From Candidatus Poribacteria bacterium (GTDB taxonomy: Bacteria; Poribacteria; WGA-4E; WGA-3G), in assembly GCA_965198235.1 (NCBI GenBank), contig OZ240248.1, positions 3,136,001 through 3,200,000 of the forward strand: 64,000 bases of DNA. The letters run 5' to 3'. Each line of letters begins with the position of its first letter. The first letter of the stretch is position 1. Below the pieces are notes generated by a model. That model saw nothing but the letters and a program-made list of their open reading frames with translations. It made no database searches and was not told the origin of the DNA. Made by a program: the position numbers and the translations under genes. This document shows positions 1,935 through 64,000 of the stretch, piece by piece.

Positions 1935-2010
1935 CGCTGGCGGGGTTTCCTGGGGAAATCCGCAGAAATACCTCGCCTACTGATAACTGACGACTGAACA
2001 CTGAAAACTC
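1935..2010. repeat. REP hairpin with C/A-module-expanded loop plus heptamer repeats
   Basis: cgctggcggggtttcc-tggggaaatccgcagaaata-cctcgcctac followed by ctgataactgacgactgaacactgaaaact. Confidence 0.7.
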
Positions 2011-2014
2011 AGAT

Positions 2015-5173: not shown

Positions 5174-5285
5174 CGCTGGCGAGGTTTCATGAGGTTTCAG
5201 AAAATATTTCATTAATTCTATCCCAAAAAATCACTGTAGGGGGGTTTTGCTTGGGGGTTTCCCCAAGTCTTGTGCCTGCCCACAC
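5174..5285. repeat. REP hairpins with modular inserts (occupying the usual pyrH position)
   Basis: cgctggcgaggtttc and gtagggggg-ttttgcttgggggtttccc-caagtcttgtgcctgccc, matching 8419-8464 and 16626-16650. Confidence 0.7.
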
Positions 5286-8418: not shown

Positions 8419-8464
8419 GTAGGGGGTTTTTGCTTGGGTATTTTCCCAGGTCTTGTGCCTGCCC
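8419..8464. repeat. GTAG REP with modular insert
   Basis: gtagggg-gtttttgcttgggtattttcc-caggtcttgtgcctgccc versus the unexpanded gtaggggcaggtcttgtgcctgccc at 16626. Confidence 0.75.
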
Positions 8465-10180: not shown

Positions 10181-10429
10181 CGGTCAGCTGTCAGTTGTAG
10201 GAGCGAGTTGTGCTCGCGATTGTAGAGATTTTCGTTTAGAAGCAACCTCTTGTGACTGACTACTAACAATCGGTAACCGCTTCCTCCTATGGCGTAGAAA
10301 AATCGGACATCTCGTGAGGCTTCCGGTACGAAATCTTCTTAATTGTTCATGTTCCCATTCACGCTGGAATTGACCAAACACCATCGTGGAACGTAGTGGA
10401 ACGATGCTCAGATTCCTATAGTTTAAAAT
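10180..10429. repeat. REP, heptamers and MITE arm abutting the udg start
   Basis: gtaggagcgagttgtgctcgcgat; ...ccatcgtggaacgtagtggaacgatgctcagattcctatagtttaaaat then ATG. Confidence 0.7.
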
Positions 10430-11149: not shown

Positions 11150-11421
11150 ATAATTGGCCTCCGCGCTGTGCTCCATTACATTCCGCACAGGTCTCTGATT
11201 TGTTCAGCTACGTTTCACGATGGTTTATAGTCAATTTTGCGGCGTACTCGCCCATAAGCGATCTGCTTCAAGGGAGACTGAACCCCGTAGGGTGTTTTTG
11301 CTTGGGGTTTTTGATAGGGTGTTTCTGCGGATTTTTGTGGATTTCTTCAAAATCTCTGTAGGGGAACAACGCCCAGATTCAATAGTTTAAAATATGACCA
11401 GATTCAATAGTTTAAAATATG
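11143..11421. mobile_element. MITE-like element with nested modular REP filling the udg-priA spacer
   Basis: Left arm contains the udg TAA; C/A modules at 11287-11348; right arm unit ccagattcaatagtttaaaatatg duplicated (11373-11396, 11398-11421). Confidence 0.65.
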
Positions 11422-16625: not shown

Positions 16626-16786
16626 GTAGGGGCAGGTCTTGTGCCTGCCCGCATGTAGGGCTTAAAAATCACATATCCCCAGTCGCGTCGGAATTAACCA
16701 GACACCACCGTGAAACATAGGGGAACGGTGACCAGATTCGATAGTTTAAAAAATGGAACGATGCCCAGATTTAATAGTTTAAAAAA
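16626..16786 (+). repeat. GTAG REP plus MITE arm with duplicated terminal unit
   Basis: gtaggggcaggtcttgtgcctgccc; cccagtcgcgtcggaattaaccagacacc...ccagattcgatagtttaaaaaa...ccagatttaatagtttaaaaaa. Confidence 0.7.
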
Positions 16787-18203: not shown

Positions 18204-18326
18204 GAGAGGGTTGTTTATCGTATTTTTCGCTGGCGAGGTTTCCTTGAGGAAATCCCCAAGCAAAACCCCTATCAAAAACACCTCGCCACCTCCAATCCGG
18301 TAGATGCGGTTTCTAACCGCACCGAA
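18200..18326. repeat. REP cluster with modular insert
   Basis: cgctggcgaggtttcc...ccccaagcaaaacccctatcaaaaacacctcgcc; gtagatgcggtttctaaccgcaccg. Confidence 0.7.
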
Positions 18327-21648: not shown

Positions 21649-21698
21649 AGGTGCCGGTATGTGTGAGGCGTGGGAACGTCAACGGGAAGGTTACTCAT

Positions 21699-21919
21699 CA
21701 AAATCTTCAGGTTGGAAACCCCTGAATTCATTCAGGCGAGGAAACCCCGCCTCCTTTGTTAATAATAAGTGCAGGCTGTATTTTACCTCGCGCCTGCAAC
21801 GAGTACCCACTATTAATATCGCCGTGGGGAGGCGACCTGTAGTCAGCGGTTTAACTTGTGGAGTGGACGTTTGGCGGACGCTTCGCACAAGCCCCCGAAT
21901 TTATTCGGGGGTTACTGAC
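21699..21919 (-). mobile_element. 221-bp non-autonomous IS200/IS605 element of the IscB/HEARO (omegaRNA) type
   Basis: Minus strand starts GTCAGTAACCCCCGAATAAATTCGGGGGCTTG, ends GTTTCCTCGCCTGAATGAATTCAGGGGTTTCC...TTTTG, followed by ATGA; no credible ORF. Confidence 0.75.
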
Positions 21920-21979
21920 AGACGCACTGTGGAATTTACCATAACCCAGTACGTCTACGAGCGTCGAAAAAAGGAGCGG

Positions 21980-22750
21980 TTATTGGTTGATATGATGCGT
22001 TGCTTTAATATGCCCCCAGGTTGTACCGAGTTTACCTTCGGGATCGACTGCCAAGTATTGCTGAAATCCCTCCATCAGCACCTCAATGTCTTCTTGTTCC
22101 AGTGCCGAGTGGAAGATAGCGACTTCATCCATCGCTCCCGGAAAGAAGTTGCCGTTTGGATCCCAGACGCCGCATCCACCGATATTGACGTTAAAGGCAG
22201 ACGTGCCATGATTTGCCCAACCACCTTTTTTCTCGACGTATTCACCATCAATATAGGTATGGACGTATTCCGTCGTAGCGACACAACCCACGTGATGCCA
22301 TTTACCATCATCGTGTTTGAATTCCCAAGGCTTCTGTGTGCCACCAGCGGTAGGTGTCCAGAGGTTGACCGCTTGGGGAGTGATGAACCCGAATTCAGGG
22401 GAGTCGTTCTGTCCGACGAGTCCCGTACGGTTGGCGTTGACATCACCGGTTTGCACCCAAGTAATAATGGTGAACTCTTCGAGATTGTCAAGAAGTTTCT
22501 GACCTGTTTTGACGCAGCTGGCTTTTCCATCAAATCTAAGTGCCGTGCCGAACTTGCCCTTTACCCATTCAGGAGATTTCTCTAAGTCGGCGTCGTTTCC
22601 TTCAGGAGAAAGGTCTGTAGCGACAGCCCCTTTGCCCTCATCGAATAACCATATACCGACTGCTGTTTCGAGGTCGATCTCGGCGGTGCTAACATGAACA
22701 GCAATGAGGCTGAAACACACCACACCGAGTGTTAATAACACTTTTTTCAT
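21980..22750 (-). CDS. secreted LamG/concanavalin A-like domain protein with C-terminal TTWG tail
   Basis: Signal peptide, GIWLFDEG, GKFGTALRFDG, WHHV, MDEVAIF..AL; ends AVDPEGKLGTTWGHIK. Confidence 0.85.
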   Translation of the reverse strand: MKKVLLTLGVVCFSLIAVHVSTAEIDLETAVGIWLFDEGKGAVATDLSPEGNDADLEKSPEWVKGKFGTALRFDGKASCVKTGQKLLDNLEEFTIITWVQTGDVNANRTGLVGQNDSPEFGFITPQAVNLWTPTAGGTQKPWEFKHDDGKWHHVGCVATTEYVHTYIDGEYVEKKGGWANHGTSAFNVNIGGCGVWDPNGNFFPGAMDEVAIFHSALEQEDIEVLMEGFQQYLAVDPEGKLGTTWGHIKATHHINQ

Positions 22751-27571: not shown

Positions 27572-27573
27572 AT

Positions 27574-29613
27574 ATGGAAGGGAAACCTTATCCAGAAGCG
27601 AAGCGAAGAATTTTAATAGAGTTAAGTACAGCAGATTTTATCAAATTCTTGAAAGAAGTAACAGATCAGAAAGGCAAACTGTTTATACAAAATCAATTGC
27701 TTCAACGTAGGGTCCCCGGATTTCGAGACGGGCGTGCTCCATTCACACGAACGGTTCCGCAGTTGATTACTAAACTAAAAAGCGAACGGGAGCTTACGAA
27801 TTCCGATTCTGCTATCTGGAATTCGTTCGCGGATGTTTGGAGGTACTGGGTTAAATCGCACCAAGAATTGGATAATACCCTAACTGCCTTCGATAATAGA
27901 GCAGATTTTGATGAGAATCACAATTGTATAACGCCACTGAATAGCGAATTAGATATTGAGTGCTTCAAGTTTTTGTTAGAAGCAAGTCACAACACCTTGA
28001 TTCATCGGGAAATGATCAGACGCTTTTATGAGTATGGTTACTTCAATGAAGATGAACGGATCCAAAATTTAATCAACCAAGTGCCCTCACGCGAAGGAAT
28101 TGAACTGAGAGAACAATTAGCAGTGCTCCCTGGTAAGGTCGATGAATTGTTTCAGACTGTTGACAGATTATCTCAAAATGTTGCAGACCTTAATTCGCGA
28201 GTTCCTGCTATGAGATCTGCCGATGAATTGGAGCAAGAACTTATTGAACAAATGGCAAAGGAACGTCACTACTTTGATACTGAACTTCAAAAGCTTAAGC
28301 AAACAATCATAGACAAGCACAGCCAGTTTGATGATCGAATTTCCAGTATAATGTCGCATTCTACCCAATTAGTTGATTTGGTGAATTGGATTAGTTCGCT
28401 TGGATCAAGGTTCTCTGAACTTCAGGGATCAATCAATTCATTTGAAAACAAACTTACTGAAATTCAATCCCTTAATGAACAGGAAATTAGTCAATTGGTA
28501 GACCAGAGAATGCAAAATGGGATCAAGCAGTTAGATTCGAGAATCCTGGGGGAGATTGGAACTCTGAAAGCGAAACTTAATGCAGCAGAGAACACAATTT
28601 CCGAAATTAAATCGAAAATGACTGATGAACCGAGAATCATCGCTCAAGCTCTGAAACTCGGGGAATGGTACAAGGCTGGATTAAAGGAAAAAACAGAACG
28701 CTACACAGACGAAAATGAATATTTGGACGATTTTCGCCATTATCTACGGAGATTTGGTATAACGAATTTTGAAGATGAAGAAATGGCGGTGGCTATTCAT
28801 ATAGCGTTGAAAGCCTTTCCTGCGGTTGAGATTGCCGATCCTCGAATAATTAAAGTTTGGGAATTAATGTGCGATAACCACTTCTACGACACAACAATCA
28901 ATGTAGAAATGGGATGGCTTGGATTACAAGATTGGTTTCCAGAGCTTTTTGCCGAAGAGTGCTTTGGAATAAGACTAGAACGAGTTGAGTTGGAAGCTTC
29001 AATTGAGAAAATGCTTGAAATCGGAGATATGCCATGGGTAATATGTTTTTGCGATTGTGACAGATCATTTCCGGAGACTTACTTGCCAGGTTTTCTGGAT
29101 TGGATTAGCGGCTTTTGTCATAGTAGTGTTAGAATCCTGCTAATACGTTGTTCTGGAACCAATCGTTGCAAGACAAATGAGAATTTTTATGAACGAGTAG
29201 CCCGTTTGCCCAAACCTAAGTTCCGAGAACCTATTGAGTCGCGGGACCTGATATCCTCAGGAATCCCCCTTACGTTGTCTGAATGGGAATCTTGGTGCCA
29301 ACCGAATCTTGACATTGACTCCGAATACAAAATATACTATGATTTTCTGGAAGAACTCAGATCGACTGTTGAAAATAGGAATATGCAAGTTCCAATAGAA
29401 CTTCTTCGGGAAATTCGACATTATCTTCGACTTTCACATAACATTCTGGCAAAGACCAGCGCGCTTGATTGGGCGTTGACTATACGTTTGTTACCGTGGA
29501 TTGGAAACCGACGTAGGTTAATTGATGCAGTACTAAATCTAGTTAATGATGGAAACCAAGAATTACCTCATTTCCGAGAGGGATTACAAGTAGCAAGCGA
29601 GACAGATGAATGA
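27574..29613 (+). CDS. coiled-coil protein with a degenerate McrB-like AAA+ C-terminal domain
   Basis: Heptad-rich region (about aa 175-350); INVEMGW, CFCDCDRSFPETY and ALDWALTIRLLPWI echo McrB-type motifs; no Walker A. Confidence 0.55.
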   Translation: MEGKPYPEAKRRILIELSTADFIKFLKEVTDQKGKLFIQNQLLQRRVPGFRDGRAPFTRTVPQLITKLKSERELTNSDSAIWNSFADVWRYWVKSHQELDNTLTAFDNRADFDENHNCITPLNSELDIECFKFLLEASHNTLIHREMIRRFYEYGYFNEDERIQNLINQVPSREGIELREQLAVLPGKVDELFQTVDRLSQNVADLNSRVPAMRSADELEQELIEQMAKERHYFDTELQKLKQTIIDKHSQFDDRISSIMSHSTQLVDLVNWISSLGSRFSELQGSINSFENKLTEIQSLNEQEISQLVDQRMQNGIKQLDSRILGEIGTLKAKLNAAENTISEIKSKMTDEPRIIAQALKLGEWYKAGLKEKTERYTDENEYLDDFRHYLRRFGITNFEDEEMAVAIHIALKAFPAVEIADPRIIKVWELMCDNHFYDTTINVEMGWLGLQDWFPELFAEECFGIRLERVELEASIEKMLEIGDMPWVICFCDCDRSFPETYLPGFLDWISGFCHSSVRILLIRCSGTNRCKTNENFYERVARLPKPKFREPIESRDLISSGIPLTLSEWESWCQPNLDIDSEYKIYYDFLEELRSTVENRNMQVPIELLREIRHYLRLSHNILAKTSALDWALTIRLLPWIGNRRRLIDAVLNLVNDGNQELPHFREGLQVASETDE

Positions 29614-30497
29614 ACCCAGCGGAAACTAATGTTTTTGATAAGTTGCTTTATTACCTATCGCATGTAGGAGGACTAAGTTGGGAGAATTTCAAGCAAAAAA
29701 CCAAACTGCTGACAAGAGATGATTTAGATTTTAAAGCGTCCACTTATCTTTTATCTCTTGCCCGTTTGGGACATCTTGATTTTGACCCGATGAAGTTATC
29801 CTATGTCACTATTGCTCCCGCTGTTCTTGTGAAAACAACGGTTGAAAGCCGATATGTTCTTGCAGGTAGTCGGATACCTAATTTTCTTGAGGAGGTTAAA
29901 AAGTGTGTTTCTGAAAATGGTGGGGAATTTCGGTCAATCCCGGAAAAATATGCTCCGATGACTATTGTACTGAGCAAATTGACGGAAAAAACATTTTCAG
30001 ATCTTGAAAGCTTGGATGTCCACATTAGTTGGGATTTTTCGGCGAAACTATCACAAATACTACCCCGCCCAAGGCTCATGAGCATCCATCCTGAACTATC
30101 TTTTGTCGCTAATTTGGAGAAAAAGTTTAATCCTATTACCCTGGATTATGAATCAGTAGGTCATGGAGAGAGCACGGACGGACTTTACCAAATTTCACAA
30201 CATGGTCCCGACGTTTACGCCTTGAGATCTGGCAACCATCAACGAAAAGTTCCACGGGATTGGGCAGAATGGAATGTGCTTGCTGGAACTCCCGGGCTAA
30301 TTTATTATGAGGAAAAATCTCAAAAATGGCGAGTTAGAAGCAAATTGCTCGTACCACTAATTGTAGACCGGTGTGCGACGCTCTGTTCAGGCTATCCGTC
30401 AAAGTTAACAGGTAATTTTGTTTGCTATTCTGACGTACCAATTGACATCGCGAAGCGATTAACGAAATCACTTTATCAAAACTGGGAGGTAATTTGA
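29610..30497 (+). CDS. hypothetical defence-island protein (DruH-C/DruG-like, inferred)
   Basis: 295 aa, ATGA-coupled to the previous gene; LARLGHLD..IAPAVL and RCATLCSGYP motifs. Confidence 0.6.
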   Translation: MNPAETNVFDKLLYYLSHVGGLSWENFKQKTKLLTRDDLDFKASTYLLSLARLGHLDFDPMKLSYVTIAPAVLVKTTVESRYVLAGSRIPNFLEEVKKCVSENGGEFRSIPEKYAPMTIVLSKLTEKTFSDLESLDVHISWDFSAKLSQILPRPRLMSIHPELSFVANLEKKFNPITLDYESVGHGESTDGLYQISQHGPDVYALRSGNHQRKVPRDWAEWNVLAGTPGLIYYEEKSQKWRVRSKLLVPLIVDRCATLCSGYPSKLTGNFVCYSDVPIDIAKRLTKSLYQNWEVI

Positions 30498-33400
30498 TGT
30501 CTGATACTATTAAAACTGATCCATTTAAAACACATAAACTACTTTGTGATGACTATATCCGTTACATACAGACGATATTAGGTTTTAATAATGTGTGCTT
30601 AGAGAAAGAGCGGAAAAAGTTGTTAGAGAAAAATGGTTTGCTTTTCCAACCACCACGTTTTGAGCCGATTTTTCCTTATCCTTCTTCCGGCAAAACGCTA
30701 TCCGATTTGTGTCATAATTCACAATTACCGTCCGAACTTGGAGAATTTCTCGCAGCAGGAGGGAACGAGGGGCTTGCACCAATAGATCGCACACTCTATG
30801 AACATCAGGCAGAAGCAATTAAAGCATCAGTTGTTAATAGTGAGGATGTTGTTGTTACAACCGGCACGGGTTCTGGAAAGACGGAATGCTTTTTACTGCC
30901 AATTTTTAGTTATCTTATCAAGGAGTCCCAAAACTGGAACGTTTACGGAGAAAGGAATCCAGAGCATCCATGGTGGCGAAATCAACAGAGGCGTGTTCCG
31001 CAGCGTGAAGGCGAAAACCGTCCAGCTGCTACCCGAGCGTTGATTTTGTATCCGCTTAATGCCCTTGTAGAAGACCAATTGATGAGGCTTCGGCGCGCTT
31101 GCGATAGTCCGAAGGCACGTCAATGGCTCACTGACAACAGAGGTGATAACCGATTCTACTTCGGACGATACACTGGATTGACTCCAGTGCCCGGTCAAGA
31201 AAAAAGTGAAAAAAATACAAATCCAAACATCCGAAGACTCCAAAACCAACTTGAGAAACTACAGAAGCAAGCTGAAAAAGCTAAGGAAAACGAAGAAACG
31301 CGTTATTTCTTCCCCTCCACCGATCCTGACGCGTCTGAAATGTGGTCTCGTTGGGACATGCAAGATCACCCACCTGATATTTTAATCACAAACTATTCAA
31401 TGCTGAACATTATGCTCACCCGCGATTTGGAACAACCAATCTTTGAGAAAACCAAGGAATGGCTAAAAGAATCAGATAGTGTTTTCCATCTCGTTGTTGA
31501 TGAACTGCATTCCTACCGAGGTACAGCAGGTTCAGAGGTTGCCTATCTACTTCGGACACTGTTTAACCGTCTCAACCTTGATCCTAATTCGCCGAAATTA
31601 CGGATCATTGCGTCAAGTGCCTCCCTTGAAGGAAATGAAGGTCGCGAGTACCTTCGCCAATTTTTTGCACGAGAGAAAAACTTCAAAATTATTGGTTCGC
31701 CTCCGCATCCTGATAAAAGTGCTGAACTTCAGGAATGTCTCAAATACTCAGAACATTTTGAAACATTTAATTCAAGTGGCGATTCTACTCAGTTAGACAG
31801 GGTTTCAAAAGATATAGTCAAATCTGCGGTAGCACAACTTTGCAACTGTAATGGTAAACTGTACGCCTCAACGATTGAAGATATGCATCAGGCTGCAAAC
31901 AAAGTAGCTTCAACACCAATTTCCGAAGATGCGATTCATGGACTAATTCGCTACCTAATCCAACAGAAGGAGGGTCCAAATACAAAGAGGGCGTTGTTGC
32001 CGCTGCGTGTGCATTATTTCTTTAAAAACTTTGAAGGATTATGGGCATGTAGCAATCCAAATTGTCAAGATGGAAACGATGAAACGCCCATTGGAAAACT
32101 GTTTGCGAATCGACGTGTCCTATGTGATGAGTGTGGTTCACGAGTCATGGAATTGTTAACCTGTGAAACGTGCGGGGACATCTTTCTTGGGGGATACAAA
32201 CAAAAGATATCGGAAGATGCGCCAGGTTGGTATCTCAGCGGTGATTATCAAGATTTATCGGGTCTGCCTGAAAAGGGAATTAGAGATCGGAGTTATGATA
32301 CCTATGCCGTTTTTTGGCAGAAGACGCAAACGCCGGTTCAAAAGAATCCTTGGACAAAAAACGGTATTAAAAGACAGTGGGCACCTGCTGTGTTTTCACA
32401 TTCTGATGGGGCACTTATTCCGGATGCCTCGTCTAATGCTAACGGTTATTACTACAAAATTAATGATTCAGACGATTGGTGCTCGGAAATTCCTAAGTTT
32501 TGTCCTAATTGTGGTGATTTACGGGATTACAAATCGGAAAAGATCCTTGTCAATGGAAAAGAACAAGCACCTTCCACGCTTCGAACCAGTAGAACAGGTT
32601 TGCAAAAAATTATTCAAATTTTCACCCAAACCTTACAGACGACTATCAAAGAACAGTTAGATCGGAAAACGATTATCTTCTCTGATAGTCGGCAAGATGC
32701 AGCGAAATATGCTGTGGGTATCCAGTGGTCGCATTACCAGGACATGATTCGGCTTATCGCTGTCGAAGCAATGAAAAGGCAGTCGGAAGATAAGGATCTG
32801 GCAATCGTTCGTAATTTTCAAAATCCACGACCTGTTTTTAGAGAGTCAATTCGGCGGCTCCATAGAAGATTTCCCGATCAACGGGAATTGTTTGATTCAA
32901 TTGAAGATGCTTTTTATGATGAAGAACCTTTGAAGTCTGATGATGAAAATCAACTTAGGGCACTTGGAGGCAATTATCCGTTCACGGCTCTTCAGGATGA
33001 CTGTTTTAATGCATTTATCAACCTCGGTATGAACCCTGGAGGCTATGGTAACAAAGTGGAAATCTCTCGGGAAAAGGGTAGACTGGGTACATGGATTGAG
33101 CATAAATGGGAGGAAGTCCTCAAGTGGGATGAACATCCAGTATCAATACGTCCGCCACATCTGCTTGAAAGTCATCAAAAACAACTTGTGACAAACATCC
33201 AAGCCGAATTAAAAAGAATGATAACGGAACAGCTTCTGTTCGCACGAAGAGATATGGGATTAGAGGGGCTTGGACTCGCTTGGTGTGAACCCTATACTGA
33301 TTCGGACAAATGGCAAATTAATGAAATTGATGTTTCTGAAATGATGTCCGCCGTTACCCGAATCCTTGCTGAACGCAGATATACAAGGATTTACTATCCC

Positions 33401-35914
33401 TATACCGACCAAATGAAAAATCCTGCGTTTCTCCGAGACTATGTCAGGAAATCAGCGGAACAAATTGGGTATCCTGAGGATGAACTCATCAGAGCAGTTG
33501 AGGAACAGCAAGAATCATCAGAGAGTTTTGAAAATTGTCTCGTTCTTGTTGAAAAACTCAATCTTCGTCTTTCCCAAGGAGACACGATCTTTCGGTGTTC
33601 CAAATGCCGGCGTAAACACCTTTACAAGGCAGGAGGAATTTGCACAAATACAGTGTGCTTGGGAAAATTGGAGGAAATTGATAAGAAGAAAGACTCGTTT
33701 GAAAAATATGGTGGTTACTACGCCATTCAAGCTGATGCAGATAGACCTGAGATTCAACCTTACCGTTTTCACTGTGAAGAATTGACGGCACAAACAGATT
33801 CAGAAGAACGTCCTACCCGGCAACGGTGGTTTCAAAATGTAATACTTGATGATGAAAATCAGAAAACGGACGAGATTGACCTACTTAGCGTGACAACAAC
33901 GATGGAAGCGGGTGTTGATATTGGTGCGCTCTCAATAGTTTTGTTGGGTAACGTTCCCCCTCAACGTTTCAATTATCAACAGCGCGTTGGGCGCGCTGGA
34001 CGGCGTGGAGAACCTGTTGCATCCTCTTTGACACTTTGCCGCCTTAGAACCCATGATGATCACTACTTTTCCCATACAGATGAAATTACAAATACCCCAA
34101 CACCCTCACCGTATCTGGACCTTCGGAGTCCGGACATTATCAGAAGGGTACTGGCGAAGGAAGTCTTGTTCCATGCTTTCCCGAAACAGTCCATTGAAAC
34201 TTTAAACGAGAGAAACGTCCACGGCGAATTTGGAAAAGTCTCAGATTGGTCTACTAATTGGGAAAAACTATCCGAATGGATCAAAACGCAACAAGGACAG
34301 ATTCAGCGAATCGTACGGGTGCTTACCGCACAAACGGAATTAGACCTCCAAAACGGGACAGATGAACTGATAAATTGGGTTACCAACGAACTTGAAACTG
34401 ATATTAACGATTGCATCGAGAATCATGAACATAAGGACGATGATTTAAGCCAAGTCCTTGCGGAATCCGGCTTGCTACCAATGTTTGGATTTCCAACAGG
34501 TGTGCGTTTATTGTATCATCAACAACCCCGTATTTCCAATTGGCCTCCAACATCAGGTGTCGTTGACCGCGACATTGAACTTGCGATCAGCCAATTTGCT
34601 CCCGGTTCAGAAACCATCAAGGATAAAAAAATCCATACCTCAATAGGTATTGTATCCTACAAACGAGAGCAAAACCAAGTCGTACCTGACAAAGGTATCG
34701 CGCATAAAAAAACGATAGGTTTCTGTGAAAATTGCAAAGCGGTTTTTGAGAATGCTGATAAAGATGATAATGTCTGTGAAATTTGTGGATATGAAAAATA
34801 TAAGCCAATTCAAGGGATTGAGCCAAAGGGATTTTTGACTAATTTCATGCCTGATGATGCCCATGAATCTTTCAATTGGACACCCCGTTCAACATATTCT
34901 CGCCTACCTTCGGACACACTTACAGACCTAAAACAGGAACGCAATTTCTTATGGGAAACAGCAGAAAAATTGAAACTGCTTTCAATTAACACGAACAGCG
35001 ATCGGTTGTTTACTCTGCAAAAAGTACGAAATAGCGAAGCACTTGTATCTCCTGAAGTCTGCCATGAATTGAATGTAGAACGCGATTTGGCAGAAGAAAA
35101 ATACGTAGCCGCACTTTACGCTGCTAAGACTACAGACGTTTTGTTAATCCAGGTTAACGAAATTCCAGCAGGTATTCTGCAAAATCAAGGTGAAGAATAC
35201 TGGCGAGCTGCGCTTTACTCTTTTGGGTTCCTGTTCCGACAATTTGTGGCAAGTCAACTGGATGTATCCCCTGACGAGCTGCGAGTTGAGATTCGACCCA
35301 TGCCTGTGGAAGAGGAAGGAACATACAAACAACAAATCTTCATCGCCGATGCTTTAGCAAATGGAGCAGGATACTGCCGTCATATTGGTGAGACTGATTC
35401 GGAAGGAAAACCATTCCGATTGGTTAAGTATTTACGTAATATGGTTGAGACTAAGAATGATTTTGCAAAAGGGTTGATTGCACACGGAAATGATTGCGAT
35501 TCTTCTTGTTACAACAAAGGTTGTATGCGTGATTACTCCAATATGCCTTACCATCCGTTTCTGGATTGGAGGTTAGGGCTTGATGTAGCACAGCTTTGCT
35601 TACAAGAAAACTATCAGATGGATCTCCAAAAAGACTATTGGTCTCCACTCGTAGACTTGGTTGAAAAGAACCTCAAAGAACTTCATCGAAGTCTTGACCG
35701 TAAGGATTATGACGGTATGCCTGTTTTTGAGGATCAAGAGCGGGCTTTTATTTTACATCATCCGTTGGCTGCAATCGGAGATTGGGCAGGGGCACACATT
35801 GCCTCTGTAATTGTTGATCTTGAGGACGCTGGATTTAAAGTAGGATATATTAACATTTTTGATGCTATTCGTAGGGTGAGTGTCGTGATGAATACACTGA
35901 ATGAAAAACGATAA
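30494..35914 (+). CDS. large DEAD/DEAH helicase with zinc fingers and C-terminal DUF1998 (DruE-like)
   Basis: TGTGSGKTE, LYPLNALVEDQ, DELH, SAS, TTTMEAGVDIG, QRVGRAGRR, DALANGAGY...CDSSCY..C; 1806 aa. Confidence 0.9.
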   Translation: MMSDTIKTDPFKTHKLLCDDYIRYIQTILGFNNVCLEKERKKLLEKNGLLFQPPRFEPIFPYPSSGKTLSDLCHNSQLPSELGEFLAAGGNEGLAPIDRTLYEHQAEAIKASVVNSEDVVVTTGTGSGKTECFLLPIFSYLIKESQNWNVYGERNPEHPWWRNQQRRVPQREGENRPAATRALILYPLNALVEDQLMRLRRACDSPKARQWLTDNRGDNRFYFGRYTGLTPVPGQEKSEKNTNPNIRRLQNQLEKLQKQAEKAKENEETRYFFPSTDPDASEMWSRWDMQDHPPDILITNYSMLNIMLTRDLEQPIFEKTKEWLKESDSVFHLVVDELHSYRGTAGSEVAYLLRTLFNRLNLDPNSPKLRIIASSASLEGNEGREYLRQFFAREKNFKIIGSPPHPDKSAELQECLKYSEHFETFNSSGDSTQLDRVSKDIVKSAVAQLCNCNGKLYASTIEDMHQAANKVASTPISEDAIHGLIRYLIQQKEGPNTKRALLPLRVHYFFKNFEGLWACSNPNCQDGNDETPIGKLFANRRVLCDECGSRVMELLTCETCGDIFLGGYKQKISEDAPGWYLSGDYQDLSGLPEKGIRDRSYDTYAVFWQKTQTPVQKNPWTKNGIKRQWAPAVFSHSDGALIPDASSNANGYYYKINDSDDWCSEIPKFCPNCGDLRDYKSEKILVNGKEQAPSTLRTSRTGLQKIIQIFTQTLQTTIKEQLDRKTIIFSDSRQDAAKYAVGIQWSHYQDMIRLIAVEAMKRQSEDKDLAIVRNFQNPRPVFRESIRRLHRRFPDQRELFDSIEDAFYDEEPLKSDDENQLRALGGNYPFTALQDDCFNAFINLGMNPGGYGNKVEISREKGRLGTWIEHKWEEVLKWDEHPVSIRPPHLLESHQKQLVTNIQAELKRMITEQLLFARRDMGLEGLGLAWCEPYTDSDKWQINEIDVSEMMSAVTRILAERRYTRIYYPYTDQMKNPAFLRDYVRKSAEQIGYPEDELIRAVEEQQESSESFENCLVLVEKLNLRLSQGDTIFRCSKCRRKHLYKAGGICTNTVCLGKLEEIDKKKDSFEKYGGYYAIQADADRPEIQPYRFHCEELTAQTDSEERPTRQRWFQNVILDDENQKTDEIDLLSVTTTMEAGVDIGALSIVLLGNVPPQRFNYQQRVGRAGRRGEPVASSLTLCRLRTHDDHYFSHTDEITNTPTPSPYLDLRSPDIIRRVLAKEVLFHAFPKQSIETLNERNVHGEFGKVSDWSTNWEKLSEWIKTQQGQIQRIVRVLTAQTELDLQNGTDELINWVTNELETDINDCIENHEHKDDDLSQVLAESGLLPMFGFPTGVRLLYHQQPRISNWPPTSGVVDRDIELAISQFAPGSETIKDKKIHTSIGIVSYKREQNQVVPDKGIAHKKTIGFCENCKAVFENADKDDNVCEICGYEKYKPIQGIEPKGFLTNFMPDDAHESFNWTPRSTYSRLPSDTLTDLKQERNFLWETAEKLKLLSINTNSDRLFTLQKVRNSEALVSPEVCHELNVERDLAEEKYVAALYAAKTTDVLLIQVNEIPAGILQNQGEEYWRAALYSFGFLFRQFVASQLDVSPDELRVEIRPMPVEEEGTYKQQIFIADALANGAGYCRHIGETDSEGKPFRLVKYLRNMVETKNDFAKGLIAHGNDCDSSCYNKGCMRDYSNMPYHPFLDWRLGLDVAQLCLQENYQMDLQKDYWSPLVDLVEKNLKELHRSLDRKDYDGMPVFEDQERAFILHHPLAAIGDWAGAHIASVIVDLEDAGFKVGYINIFDAIRRVSVVMNTLNEKR

Positions 35915-37034
35915 TATGAAACTTCAACCACTCCCAAAACTTCAACCTATCACAAGATTGTCTCCAACACTCTTTTCAACTTTAAAACAGTGTCAGTTGA
36001 GGGCAGGATTAAGCCAAGCAAGAGCACAACGGACGACCAGAAGTTCAACAGCAGCACTGTTAGGGACGATCGCGCACCGCGTCTTAGAAAGGGCAGGTTC
36101 AATCAATGGAGATGAAGAGGATTTACGAATCCAAGCAGGAGCAATATGGGATAAGGCTGTAGAGCAAATGGAGGAAGATTTACAGACTTCACCCCTTGAC
36201 AGGAGTTTGTTGCCAATTAAAAGGTGGAAAAAATACTTCCTGTTGCAACAGCGGACCGTTCGCCGATACGAAGATATTGTATCAAGTCAGGGAAGGTCTG
36301 AAACGCAGGTTGTCGCGAGTGAACGTAAATTCGATAGTGTTAAAAATGGGTTTACTGGTAAACCTGATCTTATTCTCCGTAGAGAAATTGGTCTTGTGAT
36401 TATTGACTATAAGAGTGGCGAACTCCCTGATGATTCGGAAAGTCGGGAAGAGAAGATTGAGTTGTGGCAACACCAGATTTTGTTCTATGCCACAATTGTT
36501 AAGGAAGAATTTGGGGAATGGCCAGTGGAAGGGGAAATTAGATTACTGAACACAGAAGTAATCCCTATCCAAATTGACCGACAAAAAGCGGTCGCACTTG
36601 TAGAGGAAGTTCAGGCTTTAAAAGGAAATTATAACGCGAAAATTGCTGCAGGAGTGCCACTTTCAGAATTGGCACAATATTCTGTCGACAATTGTAGATT
36701 CTGCGAATTTAAAGGAGTTTGCGGCACATTCTGGAAAGAAAATCCACAGCCTGTTCCGGGAACCGACAAGTATGGATATTTGAGCGGTCGAGTCTTAAGG
36801 CTTACAATTGGTCAAAATAACAGACACTCTATAGTAATTGCCTCCGAAAAATTGGGCGAAACCTCACAGGAATGGCAAATTTCAGGTTTGTCAACTGAAC
36901 AATTTGGGAATTTAGAAGAACTGGGGCAAGGAACTCTTGTTCGATTGATTAATTTTAAAATAGAATCTGATGGATCCTACCGGGCAAAACCGACTCAAGA
37001 TTCTGTAATTTGGGAAGTTCCAGAGAGTTTCTGA
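35901..37034 (+). CDS. PD-(D/E)XK nuclease, Cas4/AddB-like with predicted 4Fe-4S cluster
   Basis: LSPT...QC, GTIAH, GKPDL, IIDYKSG, Q..FYA, CRFCEFKGVC; start 35901 or 35916. Confidence 0.85.
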   Translation: MKNDNMKLQPLPKLQPITRLSPTLFSTLKQCQLRAGLSQARAQRTTRSSTAALLGTIAHRVLERAGSINGDEEDLRIQAGAIWDKAVEQMEEDLQTSPLDRSLLPIKRWKKYFLLQQRTVRRYEDIVSSQGRSETQVVASERKFDSVKNGFTGKPDLILRREIGLVIIDYKSGELPDDSESREEKIELWQHQILFYATIVKEEFGEWPVEGEIRLLNTEVIPIQIDRQKAVALVEEVQALKGNYNAKIAAGVPLSELAQYSVDNCRFCEFKGVCGTFWKENPQPVPGTDKYGYLSGRVLRLTIGQNNRHSIVIASEKLGETSQEWQISGLSTEQFGNLEELGQGTLVRLINFKIESDGSYRAKPTQDSVIWEVPESF

Positions 37035-38748: not shown

Positions 38749-38812
38749 TGTGGGTTTGACTTAAGGGTTTACTAAGCTTTGGACAATCCGTATCACATTG
38801 CGGATGAGCGGA

Positions 38813-38868
38813 AACACAGGCTAACAGCCTATGCTACACAGAGACACAGGCTAACAGCTTATGCTGCA
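38813..38868 (-). repeat. tandem GTAG REP pair
   Basis: cacaggctaacagcctatgctac repeated twice (minus strand GTAGCATAGGCTGTTAGCCTGTG). Confidence 0.75.
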
Positions 38869-38918
38869 AAGGGGGCAACTTGCGTTAGGAATTAGCAAAA
38901 CCTGTGAGTCTTTAGAGG

Positions 38919-39040
38919 AATCGGGGGAATCCGTAGAGGAAACACCCTATCAATACGCAGAAATACCCAAGCAAAAACACCCCAAGCAATACGCAGAAAC
39001 ACCCTATCAAAAACACCCCCAGCAAAAACACCCCTCCTAC
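38919..39040 (-). repeat. GTAG REP whose loop carries ~100 nt of shuffled C/A-rich modules
   Basis: Arms AATCGGGG...ACCCCTCCTAC of the REP AATCGGGGTTACAAACCCCTCCTAC enclose modules CACCCTATCAA, TACGCAGAAA and CCCAAGCAA. Confidence 0.8.
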
Positions 39041-39970: not shown

Positions 39971-42900
39971 CTACTTCCGCACGGCGATTTTTCCGACCTT
40001 TTGTTTCCGGACATCCCCTTTGCGAGCGGTAAATTTGTAGAGGTAAACCCCATTCGCAAGCGGTTCGCCGTCACCGTCGTAACCATCATAGTAGAATTCG
40101 TTGAAAGAGACGGACGCATCGAGTGTGTCAATGGCGATAATGCGGCGACCTGTAATCGTGTAGATTTTCAGACTGACCTCGTCTGCACTTTCCGTGAGGT
40201 AATAAGCGAAATGCGTGCCGCTTCCCGGTACAAATGGATTCGGGAAGTTGGCAATATTTTTGATTTCAAATTCCCCAGCTACAGTCGCAGTGCGATCGGT
40301 GTCTGAGATATTGCCGTTTGCGTCCTGTGCCTGTAACCGGATGCGGTATTCGCCGGGTTCCAAGACAGGGGTATAGGTGATCAGGAGTAAGTTATTGTTC
40401 GTAGGAGATGCCGCAATTACATATTCGTCTTGCGACACGTTTTCACCGTTTTTGGTGAGGATTATATTCTCCGGACGTGAATCAATCCCGTTTGCATCCT
40501 CAATCTGTGCCGAGATGGTTGGTGTATCAGAGACATAGTCGCCATCTACGAAACCTTGGTGGTCAAAGGTTAACGCAAGTGCGGGTGGACTTGTGTCACT
40601 GTGTGAGAGCAGAGCAAATGTCCCGGGCAGTTTTACCTCCGCAGAGATAAGGTCTCCACTCGTTGTTGCCTCGCCGACCCGAATCCAATTTCCGTTGTCA
40701 TTGTCCCGCCGATAGATATGGGCATCGCCGTTCCTTTCTTTTTGGAAAGTGGCGGTTACTGTCAGTGTAGGAGGGGTTTGCAACCCCGATTCCTCCAAGT
40801 CAAATTGATAGGCGAGTGCCGATGTTGAGAGTGCCGCTGTAATATCGGGCTGATTTGTAATGGTAAGGGCTTCTTCGGCATAAGTCAGAACGGTACTCGT
40901 TTGCACACTGCCGGACGGAACAGCGATACGAAAGATACCGTCTGGACTCTGAATCGGTTGATCGAGCGTTTCGGGTGTAAGAATAATACGGTTGCCCGAA
41001 AACCGCCGCGATGTCCAGTTATTCCTTTCACGTTCTTCAATGATACTTCCCTGTGGGTGTTCGGCGGATGGTGGATCTACGTAGACGGTGACGAGATATT
41101 CACCAGGGGGTGGTTGCCAAGGAACATGGACGACAACTTGGCTACCGGGTAGAACTTCGGGAAGTATTTGGAGATCCCCGATTGGAGTAGCGTTCTGGAG
41201 TTCTTGGAGTATCGCCGCAACGCTGACGTTTGTATTGGTGGGGGTATCGGTGTTACCGCTCAACGCTTTTACAAAGAACTGAACGGGTACGTTTCGAGCT
41301 GTTTGGTTCTCTCGGTTTCGGACTTGTGCTGAGAGTGTAAACGGAGGTGTTGTGTCCCATGTAAGGGTTTGATCCAAAACGACGAGGTCAATGTCAATTT
41401 CATCATATCCTACATCGTAGGTGACTAACTCTGTGTGAAATGTTCGCCCACTTTTAACTTTGATCTCGGCGTAATAATCGATAATTTCTCCGTAGGGATA
41501 TCCCGGAATAGGTCGCTCGCTTCTGTAGGTGGTGCCGGTATGCGGCACAACAGGAATCGTGAAAAATTCGTGACCATCCAGACTCCAAAACAGCGTCATT
41601 TCGTCAATAGCATTTTCGTCGGCGACTTCTACGTAAAGGTGCGCCGGTTGGTTCGGTGCAACAGGAAACGGAACAAGGCGTACGTTATTGACATATCGAG
41701 ATAGGATGTTGTAGGTTGCATGCCCCAAAGCCTCTTCATCTGCATTCCATGCGTAAATCTGGACAGCACCGACATCAAAGTCAGGATCAGCAGAGACTCG
41801 TATTTCTGTGCTAACCTGTCCATTGACGATAGAAACGATTTCCGGTTTCAGTTTTATGTTTTTTGAGATTGCGGTTTCAGTTGTCGGAACAACGGTAATT
41901 TCGGCATCTCCACTAAAGTTCCGATCGGGTAGCGTTCCAGAAACGGAGAGAAGGGTATCTCCTTGAGAAGCGTTTCGCCCTTGCTCGGCACTGATGTCGG
42001 CTGTGACTTGTATTTTGTTGCTCGGTATTTTCAAGTTTGTCGCTGGATCCCCGAAAAGCGTGAAGACCTCGGCGAGATCGAGGAATCTGGGTGTGTTGAT
42101 GAGGAACTGGGTTTTTGCCTGCGCAAGGATGGCACCGAAGTTGTACATTTCTTTGTTGAAGATAACGTCAAAAATTTCGGCGTTCAGATAATAGTCGCCA
42201 TCAAGCAGTCCGATACTGGTTGCGCCGATGACAGCGACGGCACCGCCATTTTCGGAGCGGAGGAGTTCTTCAGCGAGACTGTTTTTGTTCCCGTCAAACG
42301 AGCCGGTATAGCAGGTCATGCTGATAACCAAGGGGAGTTGTGAAATATTGGTTAAGTTCTGTTCCGGGTCTGCAAAGTCGAGCATCCGACTGGAAGCCCA
42401 TCTACCGCCACCGCCGTGTCCGATATAGTTGACGATACTGGCTCCGTCGTTAAAGCCGTCGATAACCCGTCTACCGATAGGTGTGAGGATATTGTCGTCG
42501 CTCAAAGTCGGTTCGTCCGTATGGGGCGCGTAGATACGTTGGGTTTCGTATCTGCCAATCAGCTGATTGTGGGAAATGAGTTGGGTGGTTTGCCAGTGGA
42601 ATCTCAAATCTGATCCTGCGAGCATGAGGAACCGCTTATGCCAAGAACCGACTGGCGCAGATGTCTCGTAGTTGATGGTGCGTTCGATAAATATGCGGAG
42701 ATCCACGCGATTATTAGCCGGCATTCTACCGATGAGCATGTCTGGAAAACTATCTTCTCCTCGAAATGTAACGAATTGGTGGTCCGATGCACCCGATCCG
42801 TAGCCTGGGATTTGCACCTGGATCGTTGGGACAAAATTGGGTTTATTTTTAATGTCGATATTTGTATCGCCTATGAGAAAGACATAGGTCGGAGCAGGAG

Positions 42901-45404: not shown

Positions 45405-45500
45405 CCGAGCGAGGTATTTCTGCGGATTTCTCCGGGGGTCTCGCTGGTAGGGGTTGGTTAACCCAACCCCTACTGGTAGGTGTGCGATTGGAGGTCGCAC
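45405..45500. repeat. REP cluster with modular insert
   Basis: gcgaggtatttctgcggatttctcc; gtaggggttggttaacccaacccctac; gtgcgattggaggtcgcac. Confidence 0.65.
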
Positions 45501-46094
45501 TTACTTGTTTTCAGCGAGATGATAGATCTCAATTTCTCGAATTTGGGCGATCGCGGGTTGCATGACGCGATAGTGTGGATAGTATTGACCCACAAGGGTC
45601 GTCCGACGATCGACGATTTTGTCTCCCGGTTCTGCCACTATTTTATTCACAATGACATCATCAACGGTTCGGGTAACGGCGACGCGAATCATTTTCGTCC
45701 GGAAGTTCAATCTATCAAAGATGAACTCGGCTTGCGCGCGGTCGTCGCCAATATTGCGCCGCTGAATGATTGTATCAAAAGTCTCCCATTCACCGGTTTC
45801 AGGGTTCAGATAGTCCATCTTGAACCGGAATAGGTTGCTGTTGTGAATAATGATTTTTCGGACGGGATGGACCTCAGCGAATCTGATGATGAAATTCCGT
45901 TCATTGCGCGCTGGGAGTGTTGCCAACGTTTTCAGATTTCCATCGTTCATGCCGGGGTGATTCGCTTCGGTGCCGTAGGCGGCACTCGCTATATTTTCAC
46001 TGTACTGTGTGGATAACACCTGTGCAACTCTACACGCATTGAGGTATAAGCCCATGGCTATGAGGCAGCAGATAGTTAAAGTCATGCGTTTCAC
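45501..46094 (-). CDS. lipoprotein with discoidin/F5-8-like fold
   Basis: Lipobox-like LNAC, MNDGN, C-terminal IREIEIY. Confidence 0.55.
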   Translation of the reverse strand: MKRMTLTICCLIAMGLYLNACRVAQVLSTQYSENIASAAYGTEANHPGMNDGNLKTLATLPARNERNFIIRFAEVHPVRKIIIHNSNLFRFKMDYLNPETGEWETFDTIIQRRNIGDDRAQAEFIFDRLNFRTKMIRVAVTRTVDDVIVNKIVAEPGDKIVDRRTTLVGQYYPHYRVMQPAIAQIREIEIYHLAENK

Positions 46095-46378
46095 GTTAGT
46101 TCCTCCTGAAGTGTTATATCGACCCGATCAACAATCCCCATGACGAGTTCTCGGATAGGTGCATCTTCAATGCCGAATACCTCTTGTGCAACACCCGGAC
46201 CTGCACCGACTATCACTGTGTCTCCTTCGCCGGCACCGACATAGTCGACAGCAATCGTTGGGGTGCGAACGAGTTCAGATTTGACGCTCAACGGTTGGAT
46301 GAGCAGCAGTGTGCGGTTTTCGTATGCAGAATGTTTAACGATAGAAACGACTTTTCCGATTACTTTGGCGATGTACAT
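46091..46378 (-). CDS. eutN: bacterial microcompartment vertex protein (EutN/CcmL family)
   Basis: AKVIGKVVS..K, IAVDYVGAGEGDTV, GIVD. Confidence 0.9.
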   Translation of the reverse strand: MYIAKVIGKVVSIVKHSAYENRTLLLIQPLSVKSELVRTPTIAVDYVGAGEGDTVIVGAGPGVAQEVFGIEDAPIRELVMGIVDRVDITLQEELT

Positions 46379-46458
46379 TTTTTAACTATGAGCCTCTGGA
46401 CATTGTTCCACTACGTTCCACAATGGTTTCTGGTTAATTCCAACGCGACTGCTGATGG

Positions 46459-46761
46459 CTATTCTTCTGACTGCTGACCGCCATTCTTTGTGTCAACCAG
46501 CGAAATAGAATCGACGATGCCAACGATGGCAACATCGACCGGCATCCGCTTACCCGGGATGACACTGACTGCATCGCCACCGGTAACGAAATAGACGGTT
46601 TCACCAACGCCTGCGTCGTGTAGCGTATCCACAGCGACGAGTGGTTCAGAAATGGGGTTGCGTTTCTCGTCTAAGGGTTGCACGATGAGGAGACGTGAGC
46701 CTTCTAAGCTCGGGTCTTTTCGTGTTGCGACGACGGTTCCAATAACTTTTCCTAAATCCAT
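46459..46761 (-). CDS. eutN: bacterial microcompartment vertex protein (EutN/CcmL family)
   Basis: GKVIGTVVATRKD, VAVD...AGVGETV, PVDVAIVGIVD. Confidence 0.93.
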   Translation of the reverse strand: MDLGKVIGTVVATRKDPSLEGSRLLIVQPLDEKRNPISEPLVAVDTLHDAGVGETVYFVTGGDAVSVIPGKRMPVDVAIVGIVDSISLVDTKNGGQQSEE

Positions 46762-50761: not shown

Positions 50762-51015
50762 ATTTTTAACTCTTAACTCTGGGCATCGTTCCATTACATT
50801 CCACGATGGTTCCTGGTGAAGTCAGAAACCTTTGAGCCCCTGGAGCAGTTTAACCCTCACCTCGCCTCCGTTATAAATGTTAAAGCACGAGTGTTTTTGC
50901 TTGGGGTTTTTGCTTGGGTGTTTCTGCGGATTTCTTCGATGGTTAACAGATTCCCAGAGTTAGAAAATTTCACGGTGGTTTCTGGTGTAGGAGTGAGGTC
51001 ACCTCGCCCTTACGA
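50762..51015. repeat. MITE arm, C/A modules and GTAG REP
   Basis: atttttaactcttaactctgggcatcgttcc...; gtgtttttgcttggggtttttgcttgggtgtttctgcggatttcttc; gtaggagtgaggtcacctcgcccctac. Confidence 0.7.
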
Positions 51016-56649: not shown

Positions 56650-56882
56650 CCTATAAACATGCCGCCCTTACAGGGCTTGTTTCTATCTACTGAGACGCGT
56701 TCTATAAACATGCCGCCCCTATGGGGCTGGTATTTATTAGATGTGTATGTGTTTTTTTCTATCCGGTGCGATTTCAAACCGCATCTACCGCGATTAAAAA
56801 CCGTTCGGATTTGGAAACCTCACCGATGAAAATGGGACAAGAAGAAGGCAAAGGGAGTCGGGGTTACAAACCCCTCCCACAA
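56650..56882 (-). repeat. REP array (reverse orientation)
   Basis: ctataaacatgccgccc x2, ccggtgcgatttcaaaccgcatctac, gtcggggttacaaacccctcccac. Confidence 0.7.
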
Positions 56883-59962: not shown

Positions 59963-60017
59963 GGGGATATGATAGCAGATTTTGAGGTGTAAATCAAGGG
60001 AATTTGGGATGGAGGGA

Positions 60018-63905: not shown

Positions 63906-63959
63906 TTTTCTAATTTACCTTGCGGCGTGCTGGCGTGGTTTTAGCAGGCACGTGCCTTT

Positions 63960-64000
63960 GAAAAATCTGAAGAAATACGCAGAAATACGCAGAAACACCC
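63960..64000 (+). repeat. C/A-rich modular repeat (runs off window edge)
   Basis: gaagaaatacgcagaaatacgcagaaacaccc. Confidence 0.65.

Follow-up and report, generated by a model that had tools for sequence, protein, structure and literature searches.

Elhai et al. are said to have described in 2008 the small dispersed repeats (SDRs) SDR4-6 of Nostoc and its relatives, which are nearly invariant, dispersed sequences of 21 to 27 nt. These repeats reportedly are inserted inside other repeats and conserved sequences without duplication of the target, and we know of no enzyme that acts on them. On this description, the cyanobacterial SDRs appear to be the closest known system to a family of C/A-rich modules that we have analyzed in a 64,000-nucleotide stretch of DNA from Candidatus Poribacteria bacterium (assembly GCA_965198235.1, contig OZ240248.1, positions 3,136,001 to 3,200,000), which is hereafter called the window. 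The modules share with the SDRs a minimal insert of 21 nt, near invariance, dispersal, nesting and the absence of target duplication. They differ from the SDRs in that they occur in another phylum and are modular, with units that form short arrays governed by a grammar. These arrays are inherited as blocks and have been pasted independently many times. A limited literature search found no publications on such repeats in Poribacteria, which is weak evidence of novelty.

The sequences that host the modules resemble repetitive extragenic palindrome (REP) elements and REPINs, in that they are short GTAG/CTAC-tagged hairpins that are present in many copies and are mostly intergenic. According to two reports, REPs are GTAG-tagged hairpins linked to REP-associated tyrosine transposases (RAYTs), and some are found inside genes (PMC3733652; PMC3116915). 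The modules themselves differ from REPs because they are not palindromic, carry no tag and reside as guests inside REPs, and no RAYT was found among the 56 open reading frames (ORFs) of the window. The intergenic regions studied here are mosaics of several kinds of repeat, which is a feature shared with bacterial interspersed mosaic elements. A further point of comparison is BrickBuilt of Porphyromonas gingivalis, characterized as a minisatellite that resides in a MITE (miniature inverted-repeat transposable element), wherein tandem units of ~23 nt lie between 'leader' and 'tail' subunits. BrickBuilt is dispersed, intergenic and species-restricted, with one unit type and small inverted-repeat ends (PMC4596501). 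The present modules likewise are dispersed tandem units between a head and a tail, but there are four unit types, the ends are not inverted, the hosts are many and unrelated, and most inserts consist of a single unit.

The original prediction for this locus compared the arrays to telomeres and proposed repeated templated extension of a nicked REP, for example with an HUH/RAYT nick from which a reverse transcriptase (RT) or polymerase would work along a short template, realigning at A-runs. A bacterial RT with a related activity is that of DRT2, which is reported to make tandem repeats from a short RNA template, yielding extrachromosomal cDNA (PMC12039810). The modules resemble the products of telomerase and DRT2 in their strand asymmetry and in having short units that end in a run permitting realignment. 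Unlike those products, however, the arrays have few units in a definite order, lie interstitially and are passed on as blocks, and neither an RT nor a template was found in the window or beside four of the longer arrays. Template-switch mutation at quasipalindromes is also known, as two reports describe (PMC7202029; PMC8794818), and it too involves hairpin-prone DNA in which a few bases are replaced by a templated patch with no target duplication. The classical donor in that process is the other arm of the same hairpin, whereas here it would be a distant array that supplies a patch of constant size, 17 to 44 nt.

C/A-rich modules are enriched in the window

Four modules, M0 to M3, had been predicted at nine sites of the window, and their presence was confirmed at all nine. 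Hereafter M1, M2 and M3 are called units R, Y and K, respectively, whereas Q denotes a variant of K that differs by one base in its core. Both strands of the window were compared with 100 first-order shuffles. The M1 core was observed 16 times (3.0 expected), M2 four times (0.34 expected) and M3 eight times (0.56 expected), and four longer module forms were observed three to seven times each (0.05 to 0.22 expected). Overall, M1 to M3 are enriched 5- to 80-fold and are clustered at all of the named sites. The predicted status of M0 as a module in its own right did not hold, since its 17 occurrences are at the level expected by chance (15.9) and it is therefore not enriched when considered alone. 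M0 is meaningful solely as the purine head that stands ahead of arrays. A degenerate 21-nt unit pattern matched the window seven times, compared to 0.00 times in the shuffles.

One array, here called the focal array, lies on the plus strand within a hairpin of host family J. The left arm of this hairpin (38920..38926) matches the arm in the unexpanded copies at 17331-17354 and 40767-40790. The array starts with a degenerate M1-like unit and the A-run of the head (38927..38944), wherein two changes and an insertion of 2-3 nt distinguish this unit from M1. Seven tokenized units follow (38945..39028), in the order Y (38945-38953), R (38955-38963), K (38966-38977), K (38980-38989), R (38991-38999), Y (39002-39013) and Q (39016-39028), with the first R, the first K, the second Y and the Q serving as examples of their kinds. 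The right arm of host J, with the CTAC tag at its end, completes the structure (39030..39040). This is the order that had been predicted (M2-M1-M3-M3-M1-M2 and a variant of M3), and the orders given for two other sites also agree with the tokenized sequence, namely, at 63960, M0-M1-M1 up to the end of the window and, near position 11287, an array read here as M0-M1'-M1-M2-M3. Coordinates of all such parts were obtained by arithmetic from tokenized arrays and anchor positions.

Between fixed anchors, host J measures 7-8 nt when unexpanded and 105 nt in the focal copy. Tandem Repeats Finder describes the focal array as 2.4 copies of a 36-nt period with 86% matches. When folded as DNA, the region across the array exhibits no stable structure (z = 0.22 and 1.66). 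Directly upstream, positions 38812-38875 hold two tandem copies of a ~33-nt repeat, and similar strings precede arrays in some other loci, for example L013 of the genome scan described below.

The units mark the Poribacteria lineage

We scanned 185,579 species-representative genomes with a degenerate 21-nt unit pattern in which a three-base core was left free. Because this pattern demanded 15 fixed bases, the sample is biased to intact K, Y and Q units, and R-only arrays were missed. The scan yielded at least 116 matched stretches, and these loci are identified below by L-numbers. Candidatus Poribacteria titles account for 82 of the 116 matches listed, and four more derive from a single 'uncultured bacterium' assembly that carries the same host repeats. 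The remaining 30 are singletons from other taxa, one per record. Among 95 units in the 86 lineage loci, the free core is AAG in 52, TAT in 20, CAG in 16 and something else in only seven, such that 88 of the 95 carry one of three cores. The 30 matches outside the lineage carry 22 different cores, as would be expected by chance. The modules are a mark of the Poribacteria lineage and, among the matches listed, are almost confined to it.

The units are widespread within this lineage. Over 35 sources (34 assemblies and the window), K is found in 28, Y in 19, and Q and R in 14 each. Since the arrays recur across 34 independent assemblies, which include whole chromosomes as well as fragmented genomes, they are not assembly artifacts, a possibility that the original prediction had raised against itself. 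No near-identical counterpart of the window is among the matches listed, of which an orthologous udg-priA region comes nearest with 77-80% identity, so the window represents a Poribacteria species that these matches do not include. Array density is ~0.4 per 10 kb in the flanks of the loci (nine arrays in 219,106 nt) and 1.1-1.4 per 10 kb in the window, and extrapolation suggests that a genome of ~5-6 Mb would contain hundreds of copies. The window has no match in Rfam at gathering thresholds, and a distant-mode search of a plasmid collection with the focal array returned only two chance matches, both from Klebsiella. A cyanobacterial origin was rejected, since the octamer of the highly iterated palindrome HIP1 occurs only twice in the window and the genes encoded there do not agree with such a source.

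Inserts have a fixed anatomy and a polar grammar

Array statistics were derived from 100 distinct arrays tokenized in 312,631 nt, representing 86 loci and the window. Each insert opens with a purine head (GRRG) and an A-run, continues with R units (zero to three) and with units of the K, Y or Q kind (one to three), and closes with a C-rich end. The individual snippets are C/A-rich and 10 to 21 bases in size. The R unit spans ~10 nt, whereas K, Y and Q span 13-14 nt and are distinguished from each other solely by the three-base core; all units end in an A-run that is followed by C or T. The smallest inserts add 21 nt (the head and one K, Y or Q) or 17 nt (the head and R). Heads most commonly read GAAG (34 arrays), GGGG (24), GAGG (8) or AGGG (7) before the A-run, and the 3' end of an array reads C, then A or C, then CC. 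The two ends of a unit are not inverted copies of each other, so terminal inverted repeats of the MITE type are absent. The unit also has neither a hairpin of its own nor a GTAG/CTAC tag, and it is unstructured when folded. A mini-hairpin in which the core is complementary to the bases before the head was considered and set aside, since by eye it is valid in only a few copies.

Most arrays (65 of 100) contain a single unit. Two units are present in 16 and three in 11, and longer arrays are rare (one with four units, three with five, two with six, one with seven and one with eight), the focal array being the sole array with seven. The first unit is K in 44 arrays, R in 26, Q in 16 and Y in 14. 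An R unit is followed by one of the four units in 38 of 39 cases (K in 20, Y in 8, R in 8, Q in 2), and R after K or Y occurs in only five cases. These transition statistics, whose derivation had been proposed with the original prediction, reveal a polar order in which R units stand ahead of K, Y and Q. The modules are not freely ordered, since M1 units precede M2 and M3 units. Arrays composed only of R are seen twice in the window and once in L057.

Particular composites recur in unrelated settings. An R-K-K composite is present in five loci with differing contexts (window 50894-50937, L005, L020, L049 and L080). Two window arrays (11292-11334 and 50891-50933) are 95% identical, and the difference is exactly a Y core versus a K core. 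The four-unit K-R-Y-Q part of the focal array finds a counterpart in L043, in another species and in another host, with 92.6% identity over 68 nt, and a second one in L069, again in another host, with 88% identity over 84 nt. In L094, a private variant appears in three successive units, which is equaled or exceeded in three of 2000 shuffles and points to local duplication within this array. L094 alone among the arrays shows such a variant, and private variants are not a general sign of slippage.

Empty and filled copies of host repeats differ by fixed steps

The units occur in at least nine contexts, which include host families A, B, C, F, G, H and J, further hairpins and a gene leader (host E). 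Host A is a palindrome of 20-22 nt, and hosts B, H and J are CTAC-tagged. For at least seven of these host families both empty and filled copies exist, in agreement with the prediction that the same units enter unrelated hairpin families. The anchor distances change in steps. In host A this distance is 20-22 nt when empty and 43-44 nt when filled (six single-unit copies), and in host B it is 5 nt versus 26 nt (four copies). Host C measures 6 nt when empty and 27-28 nt (four copies) or 50 nt (one copy) when filled, with L028, L115, L036 and L084 longer by 21 or 22 nt and L005 longer by 44 nt than the empty repeat at 56655..56676 (plus strand). For host F the values are 8 nt versus 29, 39, 39 and 108 nt, such that L089, L100, L013 and L011 exceed the empty hairpin at 11238..11261 (plus strand) by 21, 31, 31 and 100 nt. 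Host H measures 4 nt when empty and 47-48 nt (three copies) or 93 nt (one copy) when filled; L038, L049 and L051 hold filled copies that exceed the empty ones, of which the window has two (10197..10220, minus strand, and 250-273), by 43-44 nt. Two near-identical tandem leader copies in L076 differ solely by 3 nt versus 24 nt at one place, and a hairpin shared by L021 and L048 differs by 20 nt in length.

No target duplication was found at any empty/filled pair, and the insert replaces 0-9 target bases. In L088 a G-run of the host acts as the head, a 6-nt loop is replaced by 18 nt, and the left boundary is shifted. Positions beyond the unit are conserved over 98 arrays. The left flank reads C (43), T (51) or C (32), T (46) or A (26), and G (69) before the purine head, and the right flank reads C (93), A (58) or C (34), C (89) and C (80) before a pyrimidine. 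This conservation reflects either a target preference or homology at the edges. A hairpin context does not qualify as a strict rule, in that only 33 of the 98 arrays have flanks with at least six consecutive complementary bases, compared to 14% for swapped flanks.

The position of the insert within the host differs among families. In host A the unit is present in both orientations relative to the outer flanks, and as read on the C/A strand its place is invariably after the loop and before the 3' arm. The C/A-rich strand abuts the 3' arm, as had been predicted. The predicted location in hairpin loops fails for host B, in which the insert splits the 3' arm rather than residing in the loop and most of the stem is lost in the fold. 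With respect to the flanking genes, orientation is unbiased; the two genes run against the C/A strand in 29 cases and with it in 17, and 17 cases are mixed. Nor is a bias seen relative to local GC skew, which was positive in 30 cases and negative in 37 and serves only as a proxy for the replication strand. IS200/IS605-type elements have a strand bias with replication, and the modules differ from them in this respect as well as in having no subterminal hairpins and only a loose target consensus.

The gene-leader repeat is a frequent module host. It spans ~60-140 nt, ends directly at the start codons of unrelated genes and is conserved across Poribacteria species, and it is duplicated in tandem in L076. 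In the window, copies are located at 7052-7112, 11359-11421, 16718-16788, 46380-46440, 50763-50823 and 63906-63976. Runs of heptamer tandem repeats, which resemble the short tandemly repeated sequences of cyanobacteria, provide a further host context and flank some module sites (window 1979-2009, L072, L102 and L108). Pieces similar to hosts B and A also are present at 19580-19607 and 21735-21751, inside the long ORFs 18359-20056 and 21635-22585, and may represent REP-like sequence within coding DNA.

Sites are filled independently, and units nest within units

Comparison of orthologous loci, another step suggested with the original prediction, revealed empty versus filled copies as well as copies that are filled differently. 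The flanks of L012 and L089 are 90% identical, yet the host F hairpin that these two loci share has received different units, which lie on opposite strands. The udg-priA spacer carries an array of the R-R-Y-K type on the minus strand of the window, whereas its counterpart in L108 has a single K on the plus strand and in another context. In the orthologous spacers of L030 and L033, ~40 nt comprising the unit and the right arm are identical, no alignment is possible for the remaining spacer, and the adjoining gene has 79% identity.

Units also have entered other units. In four cases (three in L016, one in L094), a whole unit or array lies in reversed orientation inside K or Q, and the point of entry is the same in all four. 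Nesting goes one layer deeper in L057 (~1935-2030, minus strand), where a small hairpin of unrelated sequence breaks up an R...Y array in host A.

One insert resides in a protein-coding gene. In L075, a K unit and its head are in frame within a gene for a GH2 glycosidase and are read as the seven residues GKHPSKN. Close relatives were ranked by similarity to the filled query, a procedure that enriches filled proteins near the top, and 12 of 120 have an insert at this site while the other 108 have a short, uniform loop. About nine of the inserts are of the K form, one is R-only and two are longer. The two longer ones, as decoded from protein, appear to correspond to R plus K-type units read in another frame. 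We built a tree from 113 full-length proteins with the insert site masked, and its 12 filled tips are scattered; Fitch parsimony requires 11 changes, compared to 11.6 on average when the labels are shuffled. Filled proteins share 91-98% identity with their empty sisters. These data, all at the protein level, are explained either by repeated insertion at this site or by the spread of an allele through recombination.

A second in-frame insert lies a few residues past the module site in nine of the 120 GH2 orthologs, with 17 residues in six of them and a shorter related form in three. Its residues resemble a translated hairpin repeat of the GTAG type, which suggests that REP-like repeats also enter coding DNA in Poribacteria.

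Other module sites and genes in the window

Besides the focal copy, the window contains both filled and empty hairpins of several families. A host A hairpin with a single R (1956-1968) spans 1939..1977 on the plus strand; it measures 39 nt, compared to 17-22 nt in 13 empty host A copies, and its closing stem is retained in the fold (z = -2.6). Another host A hairpin (18232..18287, plus strand) carries K and then Y (18254-18278), and here too the closing stem is retained, with the units unpaired inside it (z = -3.5). A single R resides in a degenerate host A-like hairpin at 45417..45429 on the minus strand. Host B hairpins with one K are present on the minus strand at 5236..5281 (K at 5245-5257) and 8419..8464, each with an anchor gap of 26 nt rather than the 5 nt of empty copies, and the original stem of the latter is largely lost in the fold. 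An empty host B hairpin is located at 16626..16650 (minus strand). Empty host J hairpins are found at 17331-17354 and 40767..40790 on the minus strand and at ~56858-56881 on the plus strand, and thus unexpanded copies exist at each position where they had been predicted.

The array in the udg-priA spacer, composed of a degenerate R followed by R, Y and K with a head, lies between two GTAG-tagged arms at 11295..11348 (minus strand). The R-K-K composite and its head occupy 50894..50937 (minus strand). At the window edge, a head, two R units and the start of a further unit lie in a copy of the leader repeat (63969..64000, plus strand), and many loci have related leader copies in which a unit occupies the equivalent position.

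Genes of the window are of an ordinary chromosomal kind and include rpsB-tsf-frr-cdsA-dxr-rseP, priA, a riboflavin operon, a sigma-54 two-component pair, a C25 peptidase and a Type ISP restriction enzyme. The original prediction suggested looking for a template locus near an RT, primase-polymerase or RAYT gene. No RT, primase-polymerase or RAYT/Y1 transposase domain was found among the 56 window ORFs, which encode only TnpB in this category. Similarly, RT, primase-polymerase, Y1 and mobile-element genes are absent from the eight ORFs beside four longer arrays (L011, L038, L043 and L055), whose neighbors are housekeeping genes, TatC, Rho, PrfA and similar.

The TnpB gene (IS605 OrfB/Cas12f-like) spans 14296-15507, with subterminal hairpins near 14095-14120 and 15518-15545 whose stems have an 8-nt string in common with the complement of the K unit, possibly by chance. 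A run of same-strand ORFs at 25616-37034 resembles a defense-type gene island and comprises three ORFs without Pfam domains, a DEAD/Helicase_C protein of 1806 residues with a MrfA-type zinc domain, and a PD-(D/E)XK nuclease. The Type ISP restriction-modification enzyme is encoded at 56894-60022. A Gp49-like (DUF891) and HTH_37 pair at 62792-63470 resembles a HigB/HigA-type toxin-antitoxin system, and two adjacent EutN/CcmL-family genes at 46091-46761 encode microcompartment vertex proteins.

Discussion

We tentatively interpret the modules as a lineage-wide family of very small, noncoding and nonautonomous copy-and-paste insertion modules that are pasted at short edge matches, a proposal that we hold at somewhat less than even confidence. 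They are among the smallest DNA units that behave as mobile. Templated copying of some form, as was originally suggested, is the most economical source of the pattern, and local slippage as its source is ruled out. The manner of copying, and any enzyme involved, we infer from the inserts themselves. In the event that we envision, an existing array would be copied into a new site, which would make the process copy-and-paste. Very short matches at both edges (~YTG on the left, CC or ACC on the right) would guide the paste, and the insert would replace 0-9 target bases without target duplication. At a site prone to hairpins, such an event might be a template switch during replication or a short-patch conversion. 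Arrays could later be reshaped by the gain or loss of whole units at shared A- and C-runs, which we propose on account of the 36-nt period of the focal array and the private variant in L094.

Several observations weigh against this interpretation. The +21 nt step is very regular and the unit ends are constant, a pattern that a dedicated enzyme acting on a discrete unit fits better than does patch copying. The units are near-identical across species whose genes are ~79% identical, and this could reflect a conserved template or selection on each copy. Eleven gains at one codon position of the GH2 gene would represent a very hot spot for a microhomology event, and recombination between lineages could produce the same scatter. 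Finally, the four reversed insertions in L016 and L094 share a single point of entry and have an edge match solely on the head side.

The main rival explanation, possible yet unlikely in our estimation, is that a dedicated enzyme (for instance a HUH/RAYT-type nuclease or an integrase of some kind) moves a discrete unit into ~YTG^CC with a preference for single-stranded hairpin DNA. If this were true, the unit would be a true minimal transposable element. The step of 21 nt is constant in four single-unit host families, and the head and tail are constant and accompanied by a target consensus. Whole units or arrays are reversed at one fixed point within other units. Several hosts also are GTAG/CTAC-tagged hairpins, a class tied to RAYTs in the reports cited above (PMC3733652; PMC3116915), and titles in the reference list of one of these sources indicate that REPs are known insertion targets (PMC3116915). 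The unit, however, offers neither a hairpin nor inverted ends for recognition, 0-9 target bases are replaced and the left boundary is shifted in L088, orientation is unbiased relative to genes and to GC skew, and no Y1 transposase domain was found among the window ORFs. A more elaborate version, which we rate as very improbable, invokes a dedicated templated-synthesis machine wherein a nuclease opens the hairpin or ~YTG^CC site and a polymerase or RT copies a conserved R/K/Y/Q template while realigning at A-runs. Its conserved template would explain the persistence of three cores across the lineage, and it would constitute an interstitial, telomerase-like DNA writer in bacteria. The iterative addition at a nicked REP that was originally proposed, by an RT or polymerase that realigns on a short template, seems less probable again. 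It draws on the strong C/A versus G/T strand asymmetry, on the A-run and following C or T at every unit end as a possible point of realignment, on the abutment of arrays to the host 3' arm, on the conservation of units across species as if from a conserved template, and on the existence of bacterial RTs such as DRT2 that reportedly make tandem repeats from a short RNA template (PMC12039810). Random addition of this kind does not fit the grammar of the arrays, since 65 of 100 hold single units, the order is polar, and identical composites occur in different hosts and species. Arrays also lie in a coding region and in reverse within other units with no REP nearby, the repeated private variant in L094 indicates local duplication, and no RT or primase-polymerase was found in the window or among the eight ORFs beside four of the longer arrays. 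What this model predicts for the length and order of arrays and for their reliance on REPs is not observed.

Two further explanations dispense with any particular means of copying. The modules might have no mobility of their own and instead descend from a single, fixed-order ancestral MITE that was coamplified with its hosts, with differences between sites arising by deletion and duplication. The polar order with R ahead of K, Y or Q, the recurrence of the R-K-K composite and the likeness of filled copies within a host family, which could amplify as a unit, would agree with such descent. Nevertheless, the same units reside in at least nine unrelated contexts, most with empty copies, K and Y occupy the same slot of otherwise 95% identical arrays, the fillings of an orthologous hairpin lie on different strands in two species, and copies exist in frame within a gene and reversed inside units. 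This explanation, against which the original prediction had set itself, is largely refuted, and we consider it the least probable of all. Alternatively, selection may keep the units for a cellular function, such as a protein-binding site or a leader or 3'-end element, which is compatible with any spreading mechanism and which we regard as quite unlikely. The identity of ~40 nt in L030 and L033 amid an unalignable spacer and beside a gene that is only 79% identical would agree with selection, as would a core that deviates from the nearest of three forms in only seven of 95 units and the many copies at a fixed place in the repeated leader just upstream of start codons. On the other hand, orientation is not biased relative to genes, there is no Rfam match, the units are unstructured, copies turn over between close relatives, and an insert is tolerated inside a protein.

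How repeats spread that are of insufficient size to encode a transposase, or even to be bound by one, is a standing question that dates back to the SDRs of cyanobacteria, and Poribacteria provide a second, independent case of such tiny spreading repeats. This case offers an unusually clear anatomy, with a defined head and tail, fixed size steps, empty/filled pairs, nested copies and an in-frame copy within a gene, and many complete Poribacteria chromosomes are available for comparison. The modules will mislead repeat finders and short-read assemblies, and they are sharp enough to serve as a taxonomic signature of the lineage. In the organisms that carry them, the modules alter the form of REP hairpins and gene leaders and that of at least one protein loop.

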